Under the pieces are notes generated by a model. The model saw nothing but the letters and a program-made list of their open reading frames with translations, did not search any database and was not told the origin of the DNA. From Pedosphaera sp. (GTDB taxonomy: Bacteria; Verrucomicrobiota; Verrucomicrobiia; Limisphaerales; SIBH01), in the NCBI GenBank assembly GCA_031414955.1, contig JANOQV010000178.1, forward strand, positions 1-36,115: 36,115 nucleotides of DNA, written 5' to 3'. Below are positions 5,171 to 30,336 of the stretch, piece after piece (positions within the stretch are counted from its first letter, which is position 1; every line of letters starts with the position of its first letter). A program made the translations under genes and the position numbers.

Positions 5171-5695
5171 ATGAGCGCCGCACCCTCACCGTACCAGAAA
5201 CTCCCCGGCACGGGCCATCAACTCGGCAGCTACACCAAGCTCTACCGCGGCGAGGATCATTTGCTCCAGGTGATCTCCGTGACCTTCAGCGAGCGCTACA
5301 AGCGGTTTTACTTCCGCGACATCCAGGCCATCACTCTGGTCCGCACCCGCGCCTGGCTGATCTGGGCGGGCCTCTCGGGGTTCGGAGCGCTGTCGCTGCT
5401 GGCCGTCGCGCTGGCGGTCGATGAGGCCGTGGGCCGGGGGGTCTGCGCGAGCGGGGCGGGCGTGTTCGCCCTGATCGCCTTGAGCCACCTGCTGCGCGGC
5501 CCCTCGTGCCGGTGTTGCGTGCAAACGGCCGTGCAGACGGAGCGCATCCCCAGCCTGAATCGCGAGCGCAAGACGCGGAAAGTGCTGGCCGGTTTGCAAC
5601 CGCTGATCGAAGCGGCCCAGGAACCGATGACGGAATTACCGCCCGTCGCAAGCGCCACCACGCCGGACCCCGGCCAACCTGCTCCTCTCCCGTGA
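5171..5695 (+). CDS. Hypothetical two-TM membrane protein
   Basis: ATG 2 nt after the previous stop; MSAAPSPYQKL...FSERYKRFYFRDIQAI, then two TM helices; GTGA overlap with the next gene. Confidence 0.75.
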   Translation: MSAAPSPYQKLPGTGHQLGSYTKLYRGEDHLLQVISVTFSERYKRFYFRDIQAITLVRTRAWLIWAGLSGFGALSLLAVALAVDEAVGRGVCASGAGVFALIALSHLLRGPSCRCCVQTAVQTERIPSLNRERKTRKVLAGLQPLIEAAQEPMTELPPVASATTPDPGQPAPLP

Positions 5696-6024
5696 ACACG
5701 CCCGCCCTGGCCAGCCAACGCTGTTTCCACCACTCGCGGCGCGAGGCGGTGGCGCGCTGCCCGGAGTGCCGCAGCTTTTACTGCCGTGAGTGCATCACGG
5801 AACACGATGACCGTGTCATCTGCGCGAATTGTTTGCGCAAGATCACGGTCCGCGCGGAAGCCGGGCGCAAGTCTTTCGCCTGGCTCAGGCCCGTGCTGCA
5901 ATGCGCCGCCGGTCTCGTGGTGCTGTGGATGGTCTTCTACTTTTTCGGCACGGCGCTGCTCTCCATTCCGTCGTCCTTCCACGAAGGGACGGTTTGGGCC
6001 GACCAATGGTGGAAGGACCGATGA
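5692..6024 (+). CDS. Small B-box-like Zn-finger membrane protein
   Basis: GTG overlaps the previous TGA; CFHH..REAVARCPEC..FYCREC......ICANC plus one TM; ATGA overlap with the next gene. Confidence 0.8.
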   Translation: MNTPALASQRCFHHSRREAVARCPECRSFYCRECITEHDDRVICANCLRKITVRAEAGRKSFAWLRPVLQCAAGLVVLWMVFYFFGTALLSIPSSFHEGTVWADQWWKDR

Positions 6025-7622
6025 AGCGTCGCGCCCAAGACGGAGAGCCAGGCGGCCTCGACCTCGCCGAGCAGGCGCTGCACACGCTGCGCCTCGCCTC
6101 GCCCGCCACCCTGCTCTGCTACTACACCGGCAGCGTGCCGTTCGTGCTCGCGGTGCTTTTCTACTGGTCGGACATGAGCCGGAGCGGAATGGCCCAACGT
6201 CACCTCGTGCCCGGAGCCATTGGACTCGCGCTGCTCTTCGTCTGGATGAAGGCGTGGCAATCAATCTTCACCACCCGGCTCGCGGCGCAGGTGGCGAACG
6301 AACCATCGCCACGCTTACGCGCCGGACAAATCGCGCGCATGATCGGCTCGCAAACTTTTCTGCAATCCACCGGCCTGCTGCTGCTACCGCCGGCCGCGGT
6401 CATCTTGCTGCCCTTCGGCTGGCTCTTCGCGTTTTATCAGAACGCCACCGTGCTGGGCGTGCGCGAACCGGCGCTGCGCGCGCTCCTGCACCGCAGTTGG
6501 AAACAGGCCCGCCAGTCGTCCGGCCAGAACCACACCGGTCTGCTCCTCCTGCTCCTCTTCGGCTTCATCCTGTTTCTGAACGTGATGATCACCATGCTGG
6601 TGCTGCCACATCTGGTGAAAATTTTGTTCGGCGTGGAGAGCAGTTTCACCCTCAGCCCGATGAGCAGCCTCAACACCACCTTTGTCGCGGCGGCGGCGGG
6701 CCTGGCGTATCTCTGCTTCGATCCGATCCTCAAATCGTTTTACACGCTGCGCTGTTTCTACGGCGAGGCGCGGACCACGGGGGAAGATTTGCGGGTGGCG
6801 CTGCGCCGCTTCCAGGTGCCCGCGCTGGCCGGGCTGCTGGCGCTGGCGGTGTTCGCGCCAGGCAGCACCTTCGCCGCGGCGCCCCAACCGGACGTTCCGC
6901 TCCCGCCCCAGACGCAGAGCGGTGCCGCCCTGGATCATTCCATCGACGAAGTGTTGAAGCGGGCCGAGTACACCTGGCGCGCGCCACGCGAGAAACAGGC
7001 TGAGACCATCGAGAAGGAATCCGCATGGTGGAAGCGCGTGCAGGAGTGGTTGCGCGACCTGAAGCGGGGCTTCGCCGACTGGCTCAAGAAACTGTTCAGC
7101 AACCGCTCCCGCCCCACGACGCCGGGCTGGTTCTCCTTCTCGTCCGAGGGATTGATCTACCTGCTCATCGCCGCCGTCGTCGCCATCATCGGCGTGCTGG
7201 TCTATGTGCTCTGGCGCTCGCGCACGAAATCCACCGGCGCGGAACTGGCCGCCACCGCCGCCGCGCCCGTGCCGGACCTGGAGTGGGATGACGTGACGGG
7301 CGACGAACTGCCCGTCGATGGCTGGGCGCGACTTGCGCTGGAATTGCTGGAGCGCGGCGAACTGCGTCTCGCCATGCGCGCCTTCCATCTCTCCAGCCTG
7401 GCCCACCTCGCGGATCGCAATCTCGTCAGCATCGCCCGCTTCAAGAGCAACCGCGATTACGAGCGCGAGCTGCTGCGCCGCAGCCACGCCTTGCCGGAGT
7501 TGACGCAACATTTCTCGGCCAACGTGCTCGTCTTCGATCGCGTCTGGTACGGCCGGCACGACATCGACGCGGAGTTGCTGCAACAATTCCGCGCGCAGGT
7601 GGAAAGGATTCGCGAATGTTAG
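6021..7622 (+). CDS. Membrane protein with C-terminal DUF4129
   Basis: ATGA-coupled start; ~7 TMs; C-terminus G.LR.A.R...L..LA....I...KSNRDY..EL...F...FDRVWYG is typical of DUF4129. Confidence 0.85.
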   Translation: MKRRAQDGEPGGLDLAEQALHTLRLASPATLLCYYTGSVPFVLAVLFYWSDMSRSGMAQRHLVPGAIGLALLFVWMKAWQSIFTTRLAAQVANEPSPRLRAGQIARMIGSQTFLQSTGLLLLPPAAVILLPFGWLFAFYQNATVLGVREPALRALLHRSWKQARQSSGQNHTGLLLLLLFGFILFLNVMITMLVLPHLVKILFGVESSFTLSPMSSLNTTFVAAAAGLAYLCFDPILKSFYTLRCFYGEARTTGEDLRVALRRFQVPALAGLLALAVFAPGSTFAAAPQPDVPLPPQTQSGAALDHSIDEVLKRAEYTWRAPREKQAETIEKESAWWKRVQEWLRDLKRGFADWLKKLFSNRSRPTTPGWFSFSSEGLIYLLIAAVVAIIGVLVYVLWRSRTKSTGAELAATAAAPVPDLEWDDVTGDELPVDGWARLALELLERGELRLAMRAFHLSSLAHLADRNLVSIARFKSNRDYERELLRRSHALPELTQHFSANVLVFDRVWYGRHDIDAELLQQFRAQVERIREC

Positions 7623-8818
7623 CCCGCCGTTTCCTGCTGCTCTTCGCGCTGCTGGCCTTGATCGCGGTCTTTGCCGGCGGGCTGTATCAGCTCTTCAAGC
7701 TGCGCTTCTCCGCCGGCGACAGCTACCCGGCCTACTCTTCCTTGCGCGCCGATCCGCTCGGTTGCCGTGTTTACTACGAAAGCCTCGAACGGCTGGGTGA
7801 ACCGACGGTGCGCCGCCACGTTCAGTCCGTGGAGCGGCTCCCCGACGGGCGCGGCACCACGCTCTTCGTCCTCGGCTTGCCCTGGAACGAAATGACCGCC
7901 GAGGAAGGCGAATACAAAAAGCTCGACGCCTTCGTGCGCGATGGCGGACGCCTCGTGGTCACGCTCTTTCCTGAACTGGGCCGGCCGCGCTTCTTCACCA
8001 CCGGCACCGGCGTCGGCACCAACCCGCCCGCATTCAAGAATCCGCTCCAGGACGATGACTCGCGCCCGGCGTCCATCAACCTGCGCGAGAAGTGGGGCTT
8101 CGGTTACGAGCACATTCCCACCACGCGCCAACTGCTGACGTGGACGCCGGTGAAGGTCACGCGCGCCGAGGACGGTCCCCTGCCCTCCTCGTTGAGCTGG
8201 CACAGCGGCCTGGTGCTGACCAACCTCGATCCGGCGTGGCGCGTCCTCTATGCGCGCGGCCGTGATCCCGTGCTGGTCGAACGCACCCAAGGCCGCGGCT
8301 CCATCGTCATCGCCACCGATTCCTATTTCGCCAGCAACGAGGCCATGCGCGGCGAGCGCGCGCCGGAGTTGCTCGCCTGGCTGGCCAGCACGAACCGTCT
8401 CGTCATCTTCGACGAGGTCCACCTCGGCGTGCAGGAACAGCCGGGCGTCGCCACCCTGGTGCGGCGCTACCAACTGCACGGCGGCGTGCTCGCCCTCCTC
8501 GCCCTGGCGCTGCTCTTCATCGGGAAAAACTCCGTGAGCTTCGTGCCACGCCCCGCCGAGTCACCATCGGCGACGCCGGTGTCCGGGTTGGAATCGTCCG
8601 CCGGATTCCAGAACCTGCTCCGCCGCAGCATCGCGCCCAAGGACTTGCTGCAAGTGAGCCTCGACGAATGGCACAAGTCCGCGCGGCTCGATGGCCGTGT
8701 CACGCCGCCGCGCCGCGAGAAAATTCGCGCCGTGGTGGAAGCCTTTAATGCCACCGAGAAGCCGGACCTGGTGCAGGCGTACCGGGAGATCGCGCGGATT
8801 TTGAACCGGAAGAAATGA
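7616..8818 (+). CDS. DUF4350 domain protein
   Basis: N-terminal TM, YSS.R.DP.G....Y..L, FV..GG.LV, G.G.I....D....SN, .IFDE.H.G, second TM; sits upstream of moxR. Confidence 0.85.
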   Translation: MLARRFLLLFALLALIAVFAGGLYQLFKLRFSAGDSYPAYSSLRADPLGCRVYYESLERLGEPTVRRHVQSVERLPDGRGTTLFVLGLPWNEMTAEEGEYKKLDAFVRDGGRLVVTLFPELGRPRFFTTGTGVGTNPPAFKNPLQDDDSRPASINLREKWGFGYEHIPTTRQLLTWTPVKVTRAEDGPLPSSLSWHSGLVLTNLDPAWRVLYARGRDPVLVERTQGRGSIVIATDSYFASNEAMRGERAPELLAWLASTNRLVIFDEVHLGVQEQPGVATLVRRYQLHGGVLALLALALLFIGKNSVSFVPRPAESPSATPVSGLESSAGFQNLLRRSIAPKDLLQVSLDEWHKSARLDGRVTPPRREKIRAVVEAFNATEKPDLVQAYREIARILNRKK

Positions 8819-8822
8819 TGTG

Positions 8823-8991
8823 ATATCCCAAATCCCAAATCCCAAATCCCAAATAAATTCCAAGCGCCCAAATTCCATTCGCGGGCGGGCACGATTCCCG
8901 CTGGAAGAGAACCTGACGACCGATAGACCGGTCGTTTGGAATTTGAGCCGTTGGAATTTATTTGGGATTTGGGATTTGGGATTTGAAATTT
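8823..8991. repeat. Heptamer-array hairpin element (AAATCCC type), ~55-bp inverted arms
   Basis: Left arm 8823-8877 atatccc(aaatccc)3aaataaattccaagcgcccaaattcca; right arm 8937-8991 is its near-perfect reverse complement. Confidence 0.95.
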
Positions 8992-9031
8992 CGCCCCGCA
9001 ACGTCACCACCTGAACACTATCCTTACACAC

Positions 9032-9994
9032 ATGACCAACACCGACCGTCTCAAAGAAGTCCTCGCCCAAGCCCGGCACGAAGTGGGCAAAGTCATCATT
9101 GGCCAGGGCGACGTCATCGACAAGGCGCTCATCGCCATCTTCACCGGCCAGCACGCACTCATCGAAGGCGTGCCCGGCGTGGCCAAGACGCTGCTCGTCC
9201 GCACCCTCGCGCGAGTGCTGGGCTGCGAGTTCGAGCGCATCCAGTTCACGCCCGACCTGATGCCCGCCGACATCACCGGCACCAACATCTTCAACCTCCA
9301 GCGCAACGAGTTCACTTTGATTCGCGGCCCCGTCTTCACCTCGTTCCTGCTCGCGGATGAAATCAACCGCGCGCCAGCCAAGACCCAGTCCGCGCTCTTG
9401 CAAGCCATGCAGGAGCGCACCGTGACCATCGACCGCGACACCCATGCGCTGCCGGAAAACTTCACCGTGTTCGCCACGCAGAACCCCATCGAGCACGAAG
9501 GCACGTATCCGTTGCCCGAAGCGCAGAAGGATCGCTTCATGATGAAGATCACCATGTCCGCGCCCGGCCGTGACGAGGAGTTCAGTCTCGCGCAACGCAT
9601 GTTGGGCCACGAATCCCCCGAGGCGACGCTGGCGCGCGGCGACGTGCAGGCGGTCATTTCCGCGGACGACTTGCGGGAACTGCGGTTGAACCTCCAGCAC
9701 ATCACGCTGCGCGAGGAGCTGCTCGGCTACATCGTCGATATCGTGCGGGCCACGCGCCAGCACGAAAGCGTGCTGGTCGGGGCCGGCCCGCGCGCCACGC
9801 AGAGCCTGCTGCTCGCGGCCCGCGGGTATGCGGCGGTGGCCAGCCGTGATTTCGTCACGCCGGACGACATCAAGATGATGGCCGTGCCGGTGCTCGAACA
9901 CCGCCTCATCCTGCGGCCCGAGTTCGAGATCGAAGGCTTGTCCATCGGGGAAGTGATTGAACGGATTCTCCAGGAGATCGCCGTGCCGAGATGA
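9032..9994 (+). CDS. moxR: MoxR-family AAA+ ATPase
   Basis: LIEGVPGVAKT (Walker A), RIQFTPDLMPADITG, LLADEINRAPAKTQSALLQAM, ATQNPIEHEGTYPLPEAQKDRF. Confidence 0.97.
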   Translation: MTNTDRLKEVLAQARHEVGKVIIGQGDVIDKALIAIFTGQHALIEGVPGVAKTLLVRTLARVLGCEFERIQFTPDLMPADITGTNIFNLQRNEFTLIRGPVFTSFLLADEINRAPAKTQSALLQAMQERTVTIDRDTHALPENFTVFATQNPIEHEGTYPLPEAQKDRFMMKITMSAPGRDEEFSLAQRMLGHESPEATLARGDVQAVISADDLRELRLNLQHITLREELLGYIVDIVRATRQHESVLVGAGPRATQSLLLAARGYAAVASRDFVTPDDIKMMAVPVLEHRLILRPEFEIEGLSIGEVIERILQEIAVPR

Positions 9995-10037
9995 AGACAA
10001 ACTCCAAACACCAAGGGCCGATTCCTGGCGGCGCGTG

Positions 10038-10142
10038 GGTGGGGCGTCGCTGTCCCCAGCGCGCCGGGCCACTGGGCAAAAGGTGGCCAAGATTCCATTC
10101 ATACGCCTCACCCCGGCGCGCTGAGGACAGCGACGCCCTACC
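10038..10142. repeat. REP-like inverted doublet (GTAG/GTGG-type), 31-bp arms
   Basis: ggtggggcgtcgctgtccccagcgcgccggg (10038-10068) vs reverse complement of 10112-10142 ggtagggcgtcgctgtcctcagcgcgccggg; 2 mismatches. Confidence 0.9.
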
Positions 10143-10151
10143 ATCTGTTGC

Positions 10152-11522
10152 ATGATCATCCCCCGCACCAGACTGCTGATCTGGTTCGCGCTCATCGCGA
10201 TCCCGTTCGCGACCCTTGGCGGAGTGGTGCCGGGTGCGGCCGGCATCGCGGTGGCGTTGATTGCCTTGTTCGCATTGGCCGTGGCGACGGATGCCTGGCT
10301 GGCCTCGCGCTCGCTCCGGGGAATCAGCCTTGAACTCACACCGCTGCTGCGCACCACGCAGGATCGCCCGTTTTCCATCGGCGTGCGTGTGGGCAATCCC
10401 TCCACCGTCGCGCGCCTCGTGCGGATCGCGCTGGCTTTTCCACCTGAGGTGTTTCCGGCGGCTGACGATCTGCTCATCACGCTGCCGGGCGAGTCTGAAT
10501 GGTCCACGTTCGACTGGAGTTGCACGGGCCGGCAGCGCGGCAAATTCCAGATCAGCAGCGCGCGGGTCGAGGCGCGTTCGCCGCTTGGCTTCTGGGCGCA
10601 CTGGAAAACGGTGCCGGCGCAGGCGGAGGTCCGCGTCTATCCCAGCCTCGCCCGAGAGCGCAAGAACCTGGCCGCGCTCTTCCTCAACCGAGGTGCCTTC
10701 GGCATTCACGCCCAGCGACAGGTCGGCCGCGGTCGCGACTTCGAGAAACTGCGCGACTACGTGGCGGGCGACAGCATTGAGGACGTCCACTGGAAGGCCA
10801 CCGCCAAACGCGGCCATCCCGTGACCAAGGTTTATCAAATCGAGCGCACGCAGGAGGTGTATGTCATCATCGATGCGTCGCGACTGAGCGGACGAAAAGT
10901 TGGCCGTGCGGAAAGTTCGGAGTCTTCTCCCCTCTCAACCCTGAACCCTGAACCCTCAACTTCCTTGGAGCGCTTCATCACCGCCGCGCTCATCCTCGGC
11001 CAGGCCGCCGAGCAGCAGGGCGATCTCTTCGGCCTGCTCACCTTCAGCGACAAGATCGAGACCTTCCTCCGGGCGCGCAACGGCCCGGCGCATTACCACG
11101 CCTGCCGCGACGCGCTCTACACCTTGCAGGCCCGTGAGGTCGCGCCGGACTTCGATGAGTTAAGCACCTTCATCCGCCTGCGCATGAGACGGCGCGCGCT
11201 GCTGCTCTTCCTCACTTCGCTCGACGATCCCGTGGCCGCCGAATCGTTCGTGCGCAACATCGACCTCGTCTGCCGCCAACATCTGGTGATCGTCAACGTG
11301 CTCCAACCGTCGGAGGTGCGTCCCATTTTCACCAACGATTCCGTGAACCGGGCGGGTGAAATCTACGGCGAACTGGCCGGCCACCTGCGCTGGCACGCGT
11401 TGCGCGAGCTGGAGAAGGTGTTGCAGCGGCGCGGCGTCCGGCTGGGGATGCTGCCCAGCGAACGCCTCGCCGTGGATTTGGTTTCGCAGTATGTGGGGGT
11501 GAAGCAAAGGCAGTTGATATGA
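10152..11522 (+). CDS. DUF58 domain protein (MoxR-associated)
   Basis: G.G.DFEKLRDY..GD....VHWKATAK...PVTK.YQ.ER.Q...IIDASR; N-terminal TMs. Confidence 0.93.
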   Translation: MIIPRTRLLIWFALIAIPFATLGGVVPGAAGIAVALIALFALAVATDAWLASRSLRGISLELTPLLRTTQDRPFSIGVRVGNPSTVARLVRIALAFPPEVFPAADDLLITLPGESEWSTFDWSCTGRQRGKFQISSARVEARSPLGFWAHWKTVPAQAEVRVYPSLARERKNLAALFLNRGAFGIHAQRQVGRGRDFEKLRDYVAGDSIEDVHWKATAKRGHPVTKVYQIERTQEVYVIIDASRLSGRKVGRAESSESSPLSTLNPEPSTSLERFITAALILGQAAEQQGDLFGLLTFSDKIETFLRARNGPAHYHACRDALYTLQAREVAPDFDELSTFIRLRMRRRALLLFLTSLDDPVAAESFVRNIDLVCRQHLVIVNVLQPSEVRPIFTNDSVNRAGEIYGELAGHLRWHALRELEKVLQRRGVRLGMLPSERLAVDLVSQYVGVKQRQLI

Positions 11523-11660
11523 AACCCCACACTCCACACTCCAAACTCCAGGCAAGCACCAAGCTCCAGGTGCCAGCCGCCGGAAGAGTGCAGCCGCCGT
11601 GCTGTTGGTGCTTGGGACTTGAAGCTTCTCTGGGTTTTGGGGTTTGGGGTTTGGGGTTTT
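11522..11660. repeat. Heptamer-array hairpin element (AAACCCC/AAACTCC variant)
   Basis: Left arm aaacccc acactcc acactcc aaactcc aggc aagcacc aagctcc aggtgcc; right arm 11606-11660 reverse-complements to (aaacccc)3 aaaaccc agag aagcttc aagtccc aagcacc. Confidence 0.85.
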
Positions 11661-11667
11661 TCTAAAC

Positions 11668-12690
11668 ATGATCATCGACCTCCCCAAATTCACCGCCCTC
11701 GAACGCCCCGCCTGGCAGGAGCTGGAGCGACTGCTCGAGCGCCTCGAAGCCGACCCCGCCTTCCGGCTCAAGCTCGATCAGGCCAAGCGGTTCCATTACC
11801 TCTACGAGCGCACCTCGGCGGACCTGGCCAAGCTCGTGACCTTCTCCGCCGAACCGGAACTGCGGCGCTATCTGGAAAGCCTGGTGGCCCGGGCTTACTC
11901 CGAGATTCACGAGACCCGCGGCGGTCGCAAACGCTTCGCGCCTCTCGCCTGGTTCATGCAGACCCTGCCGCAGACTTTTCGCCGCCACGTCCAAGCGTTC
12001 CATCTCTCGCTGGCCATCACGCTCGTCGGGTGCATGTTCGGCGCGGCGGCACTGACCTTCGACCCAGAGTCCAAGGCGGTCATCATGCCGGAAATGTTCG
12101 CCAGTCACCTGGGCGATCCCGCGGAACGGGTACGCCGGGAAGAAGCCGCCACCCGGGACCACATGGCGGGGGGCAAGGCGAGCTTCTCCGCCTCCTTGAT
12201 GCGCAACAACATCTCGGTCTCCATCAAGGCGCTGGCCCTCGGCTTCACCTACGGCCTTGGGACCATCATCCTGCTTTTCTACAACGGCATCATCCTCGGC
12301 CTCATCAGCGCCGATTACGTGGCGGCCGGTCAGACCAAGTTCCTGCTCGGCTGGCTGCTGCCGCATGGCGTGATTGAAATCCCCGCCATCCTCATCGCCG
12401 GCCAGGCCGGGCTGATGCTGGCCCACGCGCTGATCGGCTGGGGCAGTCGCGAGCGGCTGGCCTCGCGCTTTCGCACCCTCGCGCCGGACCTGGTCACGCT
12501 CATCTTTGGCGTGGCCCTGATGCTGGTCTGGGCCGGCTTCATCGAGTCGTTCCTATCGCAATACCACGAGCCGGTGATTCCCTATTCGGCCAAGATTGCC
12601 TTTGGCGTCATCGAACTGGTGATGCTGATTCTCTTCCTCTCGCGCTGCGGCCGGAAAAGTGCCGCGACCGCCCACCGCTCTGCGCCATGA
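11668..12690 (+). CDS. SpoIIM-like (DUF95) membrane protein
   Basis: W.ELE.LL...Y.R.S.DLA...YL..LV.RAY..I; NNI.VS....A.G, NG..LG, LLPHGVIEIPAI.IAG.AG, AG.IES. Start set at ATG 11668. Confidence 0.9.
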   Translation: MIIDLPKFTALERPAWQELERLLERLEADPAFRLKLDQAKRFHYLYERTSADLAKLVTFSAEPELRRYLESLVARAYSEIHETRGGRKRFAPLAWFMQTLPQTFRRHVQAFHLSLAITLVGCMFGAAALTFDPESKAVIMPEMFASHLGDPAERVRREEAATRDHMAGGKASFSASLMRNNISVSIKALALGFTYGLGTIILLFYNGIILGLISADYVAAGQTKFLLGWLLPHGVIEIPAILIAGQAGLMLAHALIGWGSRERLASRFRTLAPDLVTLIFGVALMLVWAGFIESFLSQYHEPVIPYSAKIAFGVIELVMLILFLSRCGRKSAATAHRSAP

Positions 12691-13520
12691 CCCGCACCCA
12701 CACCTTGCTCATCCGCACGCCCGAGGGCGTGGTGTTCGCGCAGACCCTCGCCGGGCCGGTGGCACGCTTCCTGGCCTGGGGCATCGACTTCGCCTGCGCG
12801 GCCATCATCATCATCCTGATGAACATCGCCGTCGCCTTCCTCTCCGTCGTCACGCCTGATCTCGCCGCGACCCTCAGCATCCTGTTCTTCTTCATCGTCT
12901 CCATCGGTTACGGCATGACGCAGGAATGGTTCTGGCGCGGGCAAACCATCGGCAAGCGTGTGCTGCGCCTGCGCGTCGTGGATGCGCAGGGTCTGCGGCT
13001 GCAATTCAGCCAGGTGGCCATCCGCAACTTGCTCCGGGCCGTCGATCTGCTTCCCGGCCTCTACGTCATCGGCGGCGTGGCCACGCTCTGCACGCGCCAG
13101 GCCCAGCGGCTCGGCGATCTCGCGGCCAACACCGTGGTCATTCGCATCCCGAGAATCATCGAGCCAAACCTCGAGACCCTCGGCGCGGACAAGTTCAATT
13201 CGCTGCGCAGTCATCCGCATCTCTGCGCCCGGCTCCGCCAGCGCGTGACCCCCGCCGAAGCCTCCACCGCCCTCCAGGCCATCGCCCGGCGCGATGAATT
13301 CGAGGCCGTGCCCCGCGTGCAGCTTTTCCAGGAACTGGCCGCGCACTTCAAAACCAGGGTCGCCTTTCCCTCCGAGGCCATCGACGGACTCGCCGACGAA
13401 CAGTACATCCGCAATCTCGTCGATGTGCTCTATCGCACCGACCCCAGACGTGCCGCCGCCATCCCGCCGGACCCCGGCGCGCACCGGCCAGACACCAGCA
13501 TTCCGTTCACCCCCGTATGA
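12687..13520 (+). CDS. RDD family protein
   Basis: TPEGV....LAG...RFLA..ID; GQTIGKR.L.LRVV; IRNLLR.VD; QRLGDLAA.T.V; ATGA overlap. Confidence 0.92.
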   Translation: MTRTHTLLIRTPEGVVFAQTLAGPVARFLAWGIDFACAAIIIILMNIAVAFLSVVTPDLAATLSILFFFIVSIGYGMTQEWFWRGQTIGKRVLRLRVVDAQGLRLQFSQVAIRNLLRAVDLLPGLYVIGGVATLCTRQAQRLGDLAANTVVIRIPRIIEPNLETLGADKFNSLRSHPHLCARLRQRVTPAEASTALQAIARRDEFEAVPRVQLFQELAAHFKTRVAFPSEAIDGLADEQYIRNLVDVLYRTDPRRAAAIPPDPGAHRPDTSIPFTPV

Positions 13521-14647
13521 ACACTGGCGAACTCATCGCTTACCATTACGCCACCCGCCGGCCCGTGCGCCTGACCTGGCAGGAGGGACAAATCACCGCC
13601 CTCACTGAAGTCGCGGAGCGGCCGGAGACGAATCTCTGGATCGCGCCCCCGCTGCTGGACCTCCAGATCAACGGCTACGCCGGCGTGGACTTTCAGCGCG
13701 ACGATCTCACCCTGGATAAACTCCTGCACGCCGCCCGCGCGCTGCGCCGCGATGGCTGCGTCCGGTTTTTCTTCACCCTCATCACCGACGAATGGCCGCG
13801 CCTGATGACGCGCCTCGAACGCGCCCGCCAGTTGCGCGCCCAATCGCCCGAGTTGCGGGCCGCCATTGTCGGCTGGCACATCGAAGGTCCGTTCCTCTCC
13901 GGGCAGCCGGGCTTTTGCGGCGCGCACCAGCCAGCCCTCATGTGCGACCCGACCGCGCAGCATCTGCACACCCTGCGCGCCGTGACCGGCCACGACCCCG
14001 TGCTCATCACCCTCGCGCCCGAACGCGCCGGCGCCCTCGACGCCATCCGCCTCGCGCGCCAGCTCAGGATGACCGTGAGTCTCGGACACACTGATGCCCC
14101 GGCCGCCACCCTGCACGCCGCCGTGGCAGCGGGCGCGACCGGCTTCACTCATCTCGCCAACGGCTGCCCGCGCGAACTGGATCGCCACGACAACATTCTC
14201 TGGCGCGTCGCCGACGAACCTGCACTGGGCGCAAGCTTCATCCCGGACGGCCTCCATGTCTCGCCCGCACCCTTCCGCGCCCTGCACCGGCTGCTCGGTT
14301 CCGAACGCCTGATTTACTACACGACCGACGCCATGAGCGCGGGCGGCGCCGGACCCGGCCGTTACACCCTGGGCAACATCGAGTTGGAAGTCGGCCCGGA
14401 CCAAGTGGTGCGCCAGCCCGGCCAGACCAATTTCTCCGGCTCGGCCCTGCGTCCCATCGACGGCGTGTTCCGTGCGGCGGAAATGTTGCGCGTCCCGTGG
14501 CCGGAATGCTGGCAGCGGTTCTCGGAAACACCGGCCCAATTCGTCGGCCTGAGCAATCAACTCGCCGTCGGCGAACCCGTCGCGTTCTGCGCCGTCGAAC
14601 TCGGGGAAGAAAACCAGGTCTTGCACTTGTCCGTGAACCCATATTGA
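13517..14647 (+). CDS. nagA: N-acetylglucosamine-6-phosphate deacetylase
   Basis: DLQINGYAG, HIEGPFL, GAH, TLAPE, SLGHT, THL.NG, DG.HV, TDAM, L/FSGS; ATGA overlap with RDD. Confidence 0.88.
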   Translation: MNTGELIAYHYATRRPVRLTWQEGQITALTEVAERPETNLWIAPPLLDLQINGYAGVDFQRDDLTLDKLLHAARALRRDGCVRFFFTLITDEWPRLMTRLERARQLRAQSPELRAAIVGWHIEGPFLSGQPGFCGAHQPALMCDPTAQHLHTLRAVTGHDPVLITLAPERAGALDAIRLARQLRMTVSLGHTDAPAATLHAAVAAGATGFTHLANGCPRELDRHDNILWRVADEPALGASFIPDGLHVSPAPFRALHRLLGSERLIYYTTDAMSAGGAGPGRYTLGNIELEVGPDQVVRQPGQTNFSGSALRPIDGVFRAAEMLRVPWPECWQRFSETPAQFVGLSNQLAVGEPVAFCAVELGEENQVLHLSVNPY

Positions 14648-22359: not shown

Positions 22360-24501
22360 GTGTCGGCTGCGTCAAAACTTACGTTGCAATCGCCCGTCCG
22401 CGATCTGGCGGGCGTGGGACCGGAGCGGGCGGCGCAACTCGAACGTCTCGGTCTCCGCACCGTCGAAGACTTGTTGTTGCATCGTCCCCATCGCTACGAA
22501 GATCGCCGTCATTTCATTTCCATCGCGGAGTTGAAGTTGAAGGAGCCGGCCACGGTGCGCGGCAAAATTGTCGCCCAAGGGCTGAAGTATTATCAGCACC
22601 GGGAGAAATCCATCTTCGAGTTCATCCTTGATGACGGCACGGCGCGCCTGCACTGCCGCTGGTGGAACCTGCCGTTCATGGAGAAGTATTTTCAAGTGGG
22701 CGACGACGTGATGGTATTCGGCAAGCCGCTCTCGCTCAAGCCGCGCACCGTGGATCATCCGGACACCGAGGTTCTGGACCCGGACGAGGATGTGTCCATC
22801 CACCTCGACCGCATCGTGCCGGTGTATCCGCTCACGGAAGGGCTGCCGCAGCGCTGGCTGCGCTCGCTGGTATGGCGGGGGCTGCGGGAATGCGAGGAGC
22901 AGTTCGTGGAGGGGTTGCAGGTTGCAGGTTGCAAGTTGCAGGTTCAACCGAGTTCGAGTGGCGCGACGGGCCAACCTGCCACCTTCAACTTTCAACCTGC
23001 AACTTCTCTCCCCACCCGCGCCAACGCCGTTCACATGCTGCATTTCCCCGAAGAACTCGCGGACGCGGAAATCGCGCGGCAGCGGCTGGCCTTCGACGAA
23101 CTGTTCGCGTTGCAGTTGGAGATTCAACGGCGGCGGCGCGCGTTGGAGCAGAACGCCGTGGCGCTACCGTCGGGCGGGACCAATGAGTTGATGCGCCCGT
23201 TCCTGGCCGCGCTCGGATTCAAGCTCACCGGGGCGCAGACGCGTGTGCTCCGCGAGATCCGCAAGGACATGAGCGGGGCGGTCCCGATGCGACGGCTGTT
23301 GCAAGGCGACGTCGGCTCGGGCAAGACGGCGGTCGCGGCGTGCAGCGCGCTCATGTCCATTGAGAGCGGGTTCAACGTGGCCTTGATGGCACCGACGGAA
23401 ATCCTGGCCGAGCAACACTTTCAGAACTTCACGCGCTGGCTGGCGCCGCTGGGTGTGCGGGTGGAGTTGCAGACAGGAGCGAGGAAAACGGTTGAGAGTT
23501 CAGAGTTGAGAGTTGAGAGCAGAATTCCGAACGCCGCCCGTTCCGCCTCTCAACCCTCAACCCTCAACCCTCAACTCTTCATCGGCACTCACGCGCTCAT
23601 CACGCCCTCGTTCGACATGGCGAAGCTCGGGCTGGTCATCATCGATGAGCAGCACAAGTTCGGCGTGGCCCAGCGCGAGCAACTGTTGCGCAAGGGGCAT
23701 TATCCGCACCTGCTGGTGATGACGGCCACGCCCATCCCGCGCACGCTCGGGCTGACGCTTTACGGCGACCTGGATTTATCCGTCATCGACGAATTGCCAG
23801 CCAATCGCGGACGCATCCGCACCTTTGTGCGCAGCAATGCACAACTGGTTAAGGCGCAGGAATTCATGCGCGCGCAAATCAAGCAAGGCCGCCAGGCTTA
23901 CGTCGTGTATGCGCGCGTCGATGTGGCCGACAGCGAGGCCGGCATCAAGGCCGCGACCGAGGAACTCGCGCGCTGGCAGAAAGATTTCGCCCCGGACCGC
24001 GTGGGCTTGTTGCACGGCCGCCTGAACGCCCGGGAGAAGGAGCAGGTCATGGCGGACTTCCGCGCCAACCGCATCCAGGTGCTGCTCGCCACCTCGGTCA
24101 TCGAGGTTGGAGTGGATGTGGCGAACGCGACCGTGATGCTGATCGAGAACGCCGAGCAGTTCGGCCTCGCCCAGTTGCATCAGTTGCGCGGCCGGGTGGG
24201 GCGCGGCGCGCATGAGTCGTTTTGCATTCTGGTCGCGAATCTGAGGACGGATCTGGCCGCGCAACGGATGCGGGCCATCGAGCAGGCCACGGACGGATTC
24301 GCGCTGGCCGAGGCGGATTTGAAACTGCGCGGGCCGGGGGACTTTCTGGGCGCGAACCAGAGCGGGCTGCCGCCGTTTCGTTTCGCCGACCTGGCCGGAG
24401 ATCTCGGTTTGGTGGAGCAGGCGCGCGCGTGCGCCCGGCAGTCCGCTCCGGCGGCGAACGCAGTGGAGGCAGCTCGTCCCCTCAACAGCGACGAAGGGTG
24501 A
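22360..24501 (+). CDS. recG: ATP-dependent DNA helicase RecG
   Basis: GVGP....L..LG..T..DLL.H.P.RYEDR, RLAFDEL, RLLQGDVGSGKT, MAPTEILAEQH, IIDEQHKFGV.QR, MTATPIPRTL, IEVGVDV.NAT, QLHQLRGRVGRG, DGF.LAE.DL.LRG.G. Confidence 0.97.
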   Translation: MSAASKLTLQSPVRDLAGVGPERAAQLERLGLRTVEDLLLHRPHRYEDRRHFISIAELKLKEPATVRGKIVAQGLKYYQHREKSIFEFILDDGTARLHCRWWNLPFMEKYFQVGDDVMVFGKPLSLKPRTVDHPDTEVLDPDEDVSIHLDRIVPVYPLTEGLPQRWLRSLVWRGLRECEEQFVEGLQVAGCKLQVQPSSSGATGQPATFNFQPATSLPTRANAVHMLHFPEELADAEIARQRLAFDELFALQLEIQRRRRALEQNAVALPSGGTNELMRPFLAALGFKLTGAQTRVLREIRKDMSGAVPMRRLLQGDVGSGKTAVAACSALMSIESGFNVALMAPTEILAEQHFQNFTRWLAPLGVRVELQTGARKTVESSELRVESRIPNAARSASQPSTLNPQLFIGTHALITPSFDMAKLGLVIIDEQHKFGVAQREQLLRKGHYPHLLVMTATPIPRTLGLTLYGDLDLSVIDELPANRGRIRTFVRSNAQLVKAQEFMRAQIKQGRQAYVVYARVDVADSEAGIKAATEELARWQKDFAPDRVGLLHGRLNAREKEQVMADFRANRIQVLLATSVIEVGVDVANATVMLIENAEQFGLAQLHQLRGRVGRGAHESFCILVANLRTDLAAQRMRAIEQATDGFALAEADLKLRGPGDFLGANQSGLPPFRFADLAGDLGLVEQARACARQSAPAANAVEAARPLNSDEG
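22913..23004 (+). repeat. Heptamer hairpin (GGTTGCA)x4...(AACCTGC)-type x4 in frame in recG
   Basis: Left arm 22913-22944, right arm 22973-23004; translates as LQVAGCKLQV...QPATFNFQPAT. Confidence 0.92.
23491..23575 (+). repeat. Heptamer hairpin (GTTGAGA)x4...(CCCTCAA)x4 in frame in recG
   Basis: Left arm 23491-23519, right arm 23547-23575; translates as VESSELRVES...SQPSTLNPQ. Confidence 0.92.
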
Positions 24502-25711: not shown

Positions 25712-25812
25712 AAAGCGGCGCTAAAGCGACCGCACTCCAAACGCTGTCGCGCAGTTTCAGATGCCTCGTGCCGCGCGGAGCGTTTGGAGTGCGGTCGCTT
25801 TAGCGCCGCTTT
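25712..25812. repeat. Perfect 34-bp inverted repeat (REP-like doublet) between convergent genes; possible bidirectional terminator
   Basis: aaagcggcgctaaagcgaccgcactccaaacgct (25712-25745) equals the reverse complement of 25779-25812. Confidence 0.92.
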
Positions 25813-30085: not shown

Positions 30086-30336
30086 AAAACTCCAAATCCC
30101 AAAATCCAGAGGCGATTGCAAAACCCTGTTTGGCGGAGCGCCGCAATCTTTGCGGCTCGATGAGTTTCGGGCCGTTTCCGCGCCGCAAGGATTGCGGCGA
30201 TCCGACTTTTGCAATCGCCTCTCCAAACTTCAAACAAACTTCAAATTCCAAGCCTCAAATGTCGTGGTCGTTGGCCGGCTTTGGAATTTGGCCGATTGGA
30301 ATTTGTTTGGAGCTTGGTTTTTGGGATTTGGAACTT
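30086..30336. repeat. AAATCCC-type heptamer hairpin element, left arm interrupted by a MITE
   Basis: Left arm 30086-30108 + 30226-30260; right arm 30281-30336 (reverse complement aagttcc aaatccc aaaaacc aagctcc aaac aaattcc...). Confidence 0.85.
30109..30221. mobile_element. 113-bp MITE with 15-bp terminal inverted repeats and 4-bp target-site duplication
   Basis: TIR GAGGCGATTGCAAAA (30109-30123) / TTTTGCAATCGCCTC (30207-30221); TCCA at 30105-30108 and 30222-30225; internal 23-bp inverted pair. Confidence 0.8.

Follow-up and report, generated by a model that had tools for sequence, protein, structure and literature searches.

Unrelated hairpin insertions at operon junctions of a Pedosphaera genome and its relatives carry an excess of coupled bridge frames, best read as selection for translational coupling

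Two described systems come closest to the one analysed here. Mycobacterial interspersed repetitive units (MIRUs) are short repeats that insert at a start codon and hold an internal open reading frame (ORF) coupled to the gene at -4, that is by a 4-nt overlap, which is thought to render the insertion harmless (available text of PMC12548453). In integrons, the attC/attI stem-loop blocks the ribosome, and translation downstream is rescued through termination-reinitiation on a short ORF without a function of its own (PMC8876359, in the portion available). Here we analyse a 36,115-nt stretch of Pedosphaera sp. (Verrucomicrobiota; GenBank assembly GCA_031414955.1, contig JANOQV010000178.1, positions 1 to 36,115), hereafter the window, in which three junctions of an operon containing moxR, DUF58 and spoIIM-family genes are filled by hairpin spacers and entered, at the upstream stop codon, by short open frames that we call bridges. 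The feature is real and statistically strong, and it is best read as selection for translational coupling acting on unrelated inserted hairpins. What sets the case apart is an effect that is independent of the element and measured against a null, with mycobacterial MIRUs and the short ORFs of integron attC sites as its precedents.

As with a MIRU, the elements here are short repeats found at a start codon between co-directional genes, and they enclose an ORF coupled by 4-nt overlaps, at both ends of the frame 9991-10155 and at one end of the frame 11519-11665, which stops 2 nt short at the other. Unlike a MIRU, in which the ORF belongs to the element as far as that source describes it, the inserts here are unrelated repeats of varied length, and copies of the same repetitive extragenic palindrome (REP) elsewhere are mostly unbridged; furthermore, the host is not mycobacterial, and a null was used to measure the excess. 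In its working the locus resembles a MIRU, yet it does not belong to that class, its ORF not being fixed in one element. With the integron sites, to the extent that their source covers them, the locus shares an intergenic stem-loop crossed by a short ORF, but the setting is a set of conserved-order operon junctions rather than gene cassettes (the orthologous loci keep the same gene order, unlike a cassette array), and the stem-loops are formed by REP dimers and heptamer arrays. The three junctions comprise the following features.

8815..8823, + strand, Met-Met-stop mini-ORF read from the sequence, putative first leg of a junction-1 relay, overlapping the GTG of 8820-9014
8820..9014, + strand, 64-amino-acid GTG ORF through hairpin 1, with its stop 17 nt 5' of moxR; the weakest bridge
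8822..8992, unstranded, heptamer-array hairpin of junction 1, arms 8822-8877 and 8937-8992, 89% complementary
9991..10155, + strand, 54-amino-acid bridge ORF of junction 2, exact, with a 4-nt overlap with the moxR stop and with the DUF58 start
10038..10142, unstranded, GTAG-type REP head-head dimer of junction 2, 31-nt arms 43 nt apart, present at 46 loci in the genome
11519..11665, + strand, 48-amino-acid bridge ORF of junction 3, with a 4-nt overlap with the DUF58 stop and its own stop 2 nt 5' of spoIIM
11521..11660, unstranded, heptamer-array hairpin of junction 3, from the DUF58 stop to ~8 nt 5' of spoIIM, ends approximate

All three filled junctions have ATGA at both ends (8815/9032, 9991/10152 and 11519/11668), and each spacer is predicted to fold into a long hairpin (z of -10.2, -6.4 and -6.7, with 0/200 shuffles matching each). 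The coordinates, overlaps, ATGA pairs and ORF lengths in the initial annotation all check; its claim that each junction is crossed by a coupled frame holds for junctions 2 and 3 but not cleanly for junction 1, which is scored unbridged by the single-ORF rule given below. An Rfam search of the window returned no match, and a Pfam search of the three window bridge peptides returned no family. Among the listed sequencing runs no RNA data turned up, which speaks neither for nor against expression.

A strong DUF58 match is present in 103/401 genomes searched in the order, and 98 orthologous loci were analysed (the window, 17 retrieved through moxR and 80 through DUF58), with starts and stops placed by homology. 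The exact 4-nt overlap is the commonest single state at moxR/DUF58 (21/82), DUF58/spoIIM (38/91) and DUF4350/moxR (21/79), and DUF4129/DUF4350 overlap in 60/61 unfilled loci. The spacers are insertions, as had been proposed, since these junctions overlap in many relatives. The further prediction that the empty site in relatives should be a single ATGA overlap proved right in part: it is often a plain ATGA or GTGA overlap, but the unfilled DUF4350/moxR junction within the genus is a 5-16 nt gap with no overlap, and 31/38 empty DUF58/spoIIM junctions carry GTGA.

A junction was counted as bridged when a frame begins with an ATG or GTG lying between -10 and +15 relative to the upstream stop and has its end between -12 and +14 relative to the downstream start. 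Only gaps of 40-400 nt were taken, which excludes 19 gene-sized inserts, and one junction (L100) was dropped because its start is not homology-anchored, leaving 92 filled junctions with the window's three included. Single-ORF bridges cross 65/92, against 22.9 expected under a phase-shift null, which moves the phase at one end or the other of each spacer (9 combinations) and so keeps both the spacer sequence and the upstream ATGA; exact bridges number 43 against 10.7 expected. The inserts form 78 similarity clusters, most being mutually unrelated and of many lengths, and counting one per cluster still gives 55/78 bridged against 18.9 expected, while the two junctions with homology-anchored ends give 29/44 against 11.4. 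Chains of up to three ORFs raise the count from 65/92 to 69/92 and do not single out junction 1. By junction, the bridged fraction of filled sites is 13/13 at DUF4129/DUF4350, 7/7 at B-box/DUF4129, 19/25 at DUF58/spoIIM, 10/14 at DUF4350/moxR, 10/19 at moxR/DUF58, 3/7 between RDD and the last gene surveyed, 2/5 at spoIIM/RDD and 1/2 between the upstream gene and B-box. The 13 inserts at DUF4129/DUF4350, all of which keep a phased frame, are 97-373 nt long and belong to 9 similarity clusters, which suggests that selection for coupling is strong at this junction and that such spacers are not scanned by ribosomes.

The excess extends across the genome, in which our own dicodon caller, blind to overlaps in its choice of starts, gives 4371 genes (83% coding). 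We write RTGA for ATGA or GTGA at the upstream stop, and take the 218 co-directional spacers of 40-400 nt with a strong hairpin. RTGA occurs at 116/218 of these junctions, compared with 22/106 gene ends at convergent hairpins (p 2e-8) and 385/1267 hairpin-free spacers. Among the 116, exact bridges number 27, with 8.2 expected under the phase-shift null, and exact and near bridges together 47, with 17.2 expected; frames stop early at 51, and N-terminal extensions through the hairpin show no enrichment (12, with 13.9 expected). Hairpin-free RTGA spacers show little excess (exact bridges at 27/385, 23.0 expected). Heptamer hairpins are bridged at 33/60 against 12.1 expected and other hairpins at 14/56 against 5.1. 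In a 247-kb sample of a genome of the same genus (G007), exact bridges cross 4/5 junctions against 0.7 expected. The expected enrichment of a coupled open frame is therefore borne out in the genome and the orthologs alike.

Bridging depends on the site and not on the element, because the junction-2 REP occurs in all contexts and is mostly unbridged elsewhere: of its 46 loci, 24 are co-directional, 5 convergent, 3 divergent, 5 in genes and 9 at contig ends, and at the 24 co-directional loci the window copy is the sole exact bridge, with two others near (read from the listing). The best reading is that selection keeps the frame and that the bridge peptides are by-products. Indels of 6 and 18 nt separate the homologous bridges of G007 and another genome, G009, and the ratio of non-synonymous to synonymous changes per site (pN/pS) is ~0.9 (24/130 vs 9/44) and >1 (10/92 vs 1/34) in these two pairs, where the counts are small; the genes flanking them give 0.26 and 0.19. 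Otherwise, different genomes have unrelated bridge peptides at one and the same junction.

Start signals also set the bridges apart. A Shine-Dalgarno (SD)-like motif precedes 19/47 bridge starts (40%) compared with 5/51 unbridged hairpin RTGAs (p 8e-4); plain overlaps carry it at 55/251 (22%) and convergent RTGAs at 9/149, and genome-wide it is at background level before leading genes (7%, compared with 8% for internal ATGs). In 6/7 junction types of the orthologs, bridge starts have a stronger mean SD pairing energy than empty overlaps do, a comparison confounded by lineage and computed with a generic anti-SD. Greater use of SD at overlaps than before leading genes is described for haloarchaea, one crenarchaeal group and cyanobacteria (PMC6728339); the available main text of that study does not contain the word Verrucomicrobia. 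The overlap geometry of the bridges is identical to that of described -4/-1 termination-reinitiation and the SD pattern is alike, as far as the sources at hand describe them; the difference would lie in two serial hand-overs through a junk ORF. The sense strand folds better in 128/218 hairpin spacers, a weak bias.

Many unrelated repeats are bridged and not one family, which points to selection. From comparison of the sequences, we consider it probable that insertions are retained by selection when translational coupling survives them, through a termination-reinitiation relay across unrelated hairpins. As the empty and filled states of relatives show, unrelated hairpin repeats have inserted at or near operon junctions coupled by stop/start overlaps, and the former overlapped start, kept at the upstream stop, has become the start of a short frame within the insert. 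Inserts depriving the downstream gene of its arriving ribosome would be selected against, leaving as survivors those with an open frame ending on, or a few bases from, the downstream start, which is the pattern in the counts. A ribosome ending gene 1 would then reinitiate on the bridge, translate and melt the hairpin, terminate, and reinitiate on gene 2, with the bridge peptide as a by-product of the relay. In E. coli and H. volcanii a spacer of ~20 nt nearly abolishes coupling (available text of PMC10666635), by which measure an insert of 150 nt that lacks a relay would break the coupling; the spacing at junctions 2 and 3 is that of coupled pairs, and by the same source junction 1 (17 nt) is borderline. 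We infer both purifying selection for coupling and the double termination-reinitiation relay. If so, nature has run an experiment on translational coupling at every filled junction, and junctions could be ranked by their need for it from genomes alone, also in uncultured lineages. Mobile repeats would have a route to colonise tightly coupled operons, and the bridges would be small ORFs of a kind that is translated but yields no functional protein, a point of relevance to small-protein catalogues.

Several observations weigh against this relay under selection. Within the window, 9991-10155 and 11519-11665 match it well and 8815-9014 is the weakest case: the junction-1 frame falls 17 nt short of moxR, its hairpin ends 40 nt from the moxR start, and that start is predicted to be open (0.81), so junction 1 is doubtful and may be a decayed relay or chance. 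All three of the window's own bridge starts lack an SD motif. Under our rule 27/92 filled ortholog junctions are unbridged, as are 69/116 RTGA hairpin junctions in the genome, 12 of the 69 being N-terminal extensions, and the genome-wide starts rest on our own gene caller. The ortholog genomes are related and not independent, so p-values there are overstated, yet the cluster count still shows the excess. Strictness of the empty overlap does not correlate significantly with bridging rate (rho 0.47, p 0.24, 8 junction types). Predicted openness near the downstream start is the same at bridged (0.45) and unbridged (0.44) junctions, and occlusion of that start was accordingly rejected as the distinguishing factor. 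Finally, in a repeat-poor genome of another family (G376; 56 pieces, 1.09 Mb) bridges cross 0/2 RTGA hairpin junctions, although this sample has only 10 strong hairpin junctions, 2 of them with RTGA, too few to tell; its heptamer class, defined after the fact, is bridged at 2/7 against 1.2 expected.

It is possible, but in our view unlikely, that translation of the spacer matters in itself, either by stopping Rho termination or nuclease cleavage or by unfolding the hairpin for a new 30S, with no ribosome handed on. Two matches to the Rho RNA-binding domain indicate that the genome apparently encodes Rho; RNA unfolding is an accepted route of coupling (PMC12548453, in its available text); and bridged hairpins abut the start, with a median of 12 nt from hairpin end to downstream start compared with 73 nt where unbridged. 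Covering the RNA would need an open frame only, yet frames overrunning the downstream start are depleted (6/116 against 17.7 expected), and bridge stops pile up at exactly +4, at 27/47 bridges in the genome and 50/65 in the orthologs. These two patterns favour hand-over over RNA covering, and the equal openness of bridged and unbridged starts also speaks against this alternative.

A MIRU-like design, in which the element carries its own ORF and duplicates ATGA so that the way of insertion would itself bring about coupling, with no need of selection, is likewise improbable. Indeed, many heptamer hairpins reach from the stop itself to a point 4-12 nt 5' of the start, heptamer arrays prefer co-directional (113/1615) to convergent (5/325) junctions (p 3e-5), and ATGA stands at both ends of 24/37 exact ortholog bridges, with 8-14 nt direct repeats in a few. 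However, a single junction holds inserts of many lengths with no relation to one another, copies of the junction-2 REP at other loci mostly have no bridge, and non-heptamer hairpins are in excess too. The remaining 13/37 exact bridges run from GTGA to ATGA, and bridged downstream starts are ATG in 63/65, set against the mostly GTGA empty state of DUF58/spoIIM. Since the sequence common to both insert ends is usually ATGA alone and GTGA...ATGA is frequent, target duplication is not the whole story: insertion at start/stop overlaps, as originally proposed, agrees with the empty and filled states of relatives, but a simple duplication of ATGA fails for those 13. Long target-site duplications, considered as a signature of insertion, are rare.

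The proposal that the bridges encode functional de novo micropeptides is very improbable. Heptamer bridges do have in common an N-half that is polar and a C-half rich in Trp/Leu, but that pattern is dictated by the 7-nt repeat and has no Pfam match, and the unrelated peptides and pN/pS near 1 (from small counts) described above leave this part of the initial annotation without footing. Chance, whereby an ancestral ATGA persists, repeats are stop-poor and frames are incidental, is just as improbable and is refuted at the population level: heptamer units are indeed mostly stop-free on both strands (263/338, compared with 174 expected from letter permutations, the units being of few families and not independent), the G376 sample shows no excess among its few hairpins, and chance may well hold for junction 1 (8815-9014) alone, but a null that retains the ATGA and the spacer sequence, and so takes up the earlier caveat that such arrays are stop-free and ATGA common, is exceeded about threefold in the genome and orthologs and also in the small second-genome sample (G007).

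Turning to the elements themselves, the junction-2 hairpin resembles GTAG REPs, which are associated with REP-associated tyrosine transposases (RAYTs), in being a head-head dimer with tagged ends (available text of PMC3733652). The verrucomicrobial O. terrae is, in the same text, rich in GTAG repeats and the species with the highest number of intragenic copies, and a GTGG variant is described. The junction-2 element is a tagged palindrome with GTGG on its left arm, whereas other copies of the family carry GTAG, and it is multi-copy with its arms spaced within the 20-100 bp of such dimers. Coupled bridge ORFs are not described in the available part of PMC3733652, and ORFs in miniature inverted-repeat transposable elements, but not coupling, are mentioned in that of PMC10969869. 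In the literature searched, mostly without subscription journals, we found no account of bridge ORFs in REP or heptamer repeats. As to a RAYT partner, none of 12 Y1_Tnp matches was seen, by eye, to be flanked on both sides by the junction-2 repeat; one copy of the family lies ~290 nt upstream of the Y1_Tnp match on C89, outside that gene's own inverted repeats (by eye). A perfect 34-nt inverted repeat at 25712-25812 of the window belongs to a different REP-like family.

Heptamer arrays number 338 in the genome, with 198 in co-directional spacers, 87 inside called genes, 30 divergent and 5 convergent. A 7-nt period with stop-free units gives the same open peptide in all three frames. Heptamer repeats also make up the cyanobacterial short tandemly repeated repetitive (STRR) sequences, which resemble ours in their 7-nt period when compared by description, not by sequence. 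The in-gene arrays recall the Rickettsia palindromic elements, which fuse in frame with the host protein (PMC10969869 and PMC3733652, as far as available), with the difference that the bridges are separate ORFs. One such array is the following.

10931..10961, + strand, heptamer array in frame inside DUF58, placed in a loop variable between orthologs

In-frame heptamer arrays of the window lie at 10931-10961, 867-960, 22911-22944 and 23490-23579, in DUF58, a minus-strand gene and a RecG gene, and an arm much like that of junction 1 lies at 30280-30336, at a minus-strand junction upstream of an enoyl-reductase-like gene. Four genes for four-helix-bundle proteins (PF05635) have heptamer-like repeat arms at their ends, read by eye, and lie inside co-directional runs.

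G000:C217:29050-29361, PF05635 gene
C241:18056-18349, PF05635 gene
C137:15599-15886, PF05635 gene
C32:21037-21342, PF05635 gene

The gene on C241 opens with the same arm as bridge ORFs, and a hairpin follows. Perhaps, though we hold this tentatively and think it rather doubtful, the heptamer hairpins are selfish repeats specialised for translated RNA that target stop/start overlaps and hide via host reinitiation, with the PF05635 genes as a possible autonomous partner; were this true, the need for coupling could be read across many phyla from genomes alone, as the frequency of bridges at each junction.

The operon itself runs in the order B-box gene, DUF4129, DUF4350, moxR, DUF58, spoIIM-family gene, RDD and a further co-directional gene, with names taken from Pfam profile matches to the window proteins.

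5692..6024, + strand, B-box-like zinc-finger gene, GTGA overlap 5' and ATGA overlap 3' (PF22586, E 7e-5, below cut-off)
6021..7622, + strand, DUF4129 gene (Pfam), 7-nt overlap with DUF4350
7616..8818, + strand, DUF4350 gene (Pfam), its stop being the ATGA at 8815
9032..9994, + strand, MoxR-type AAA ATPase (Pfam AAA_3, AAA_lid_2, bpMoxR)
10152..11522, + strand, DUF58 gene (Pfam)
11668..12690, + strand, SpoIIM-family membrane protein gene (Pfam)
12687..13520, + strand, RDD-family gene (Pfam), ATGA overlap on each side
13517..14647, + strand, last co-directional gene of the junction survey, no Pfam match at E 0.001

For the last of these we used the working label 'nagA', an assumption that Pfam does not support at that threshold. 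Plain stop/start overlaps in the window are GTGA at 5692 and ATGA at 6021, 12687 and 13517; the 7-nt DUF4129/DUF4350 overlap (7616-7622) is an addition to those listed in the initial annotation.

Relatives hold a variety of other inserts at these junctions. At moxR/DUF58, two loci (L033:5242-5841 and L035:3579-4178) have a 598-nt insert of two ORFs that ends on the ATGA at the DUF58 start and looks, from its sequence, like a toxin-antitoxin pair. Two others (L037 and L038) have inserts of 731 and 574 nt with long inverted repeats and no single-ORF bridge, which look as if they enclose a Y1/RAYT-type transposase, whole or truncated. In L104 a 961-nt gap at the same junction is filled by a 322-amino-acid ORF with an exact 4-nt overlap at both ends, a whole gene as bridge. 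In the 238-nt DUF58/spoIIM junction of L033, a REP-like palindrome is nested in a decayed heptamer hairpin, and the frame is still exact.

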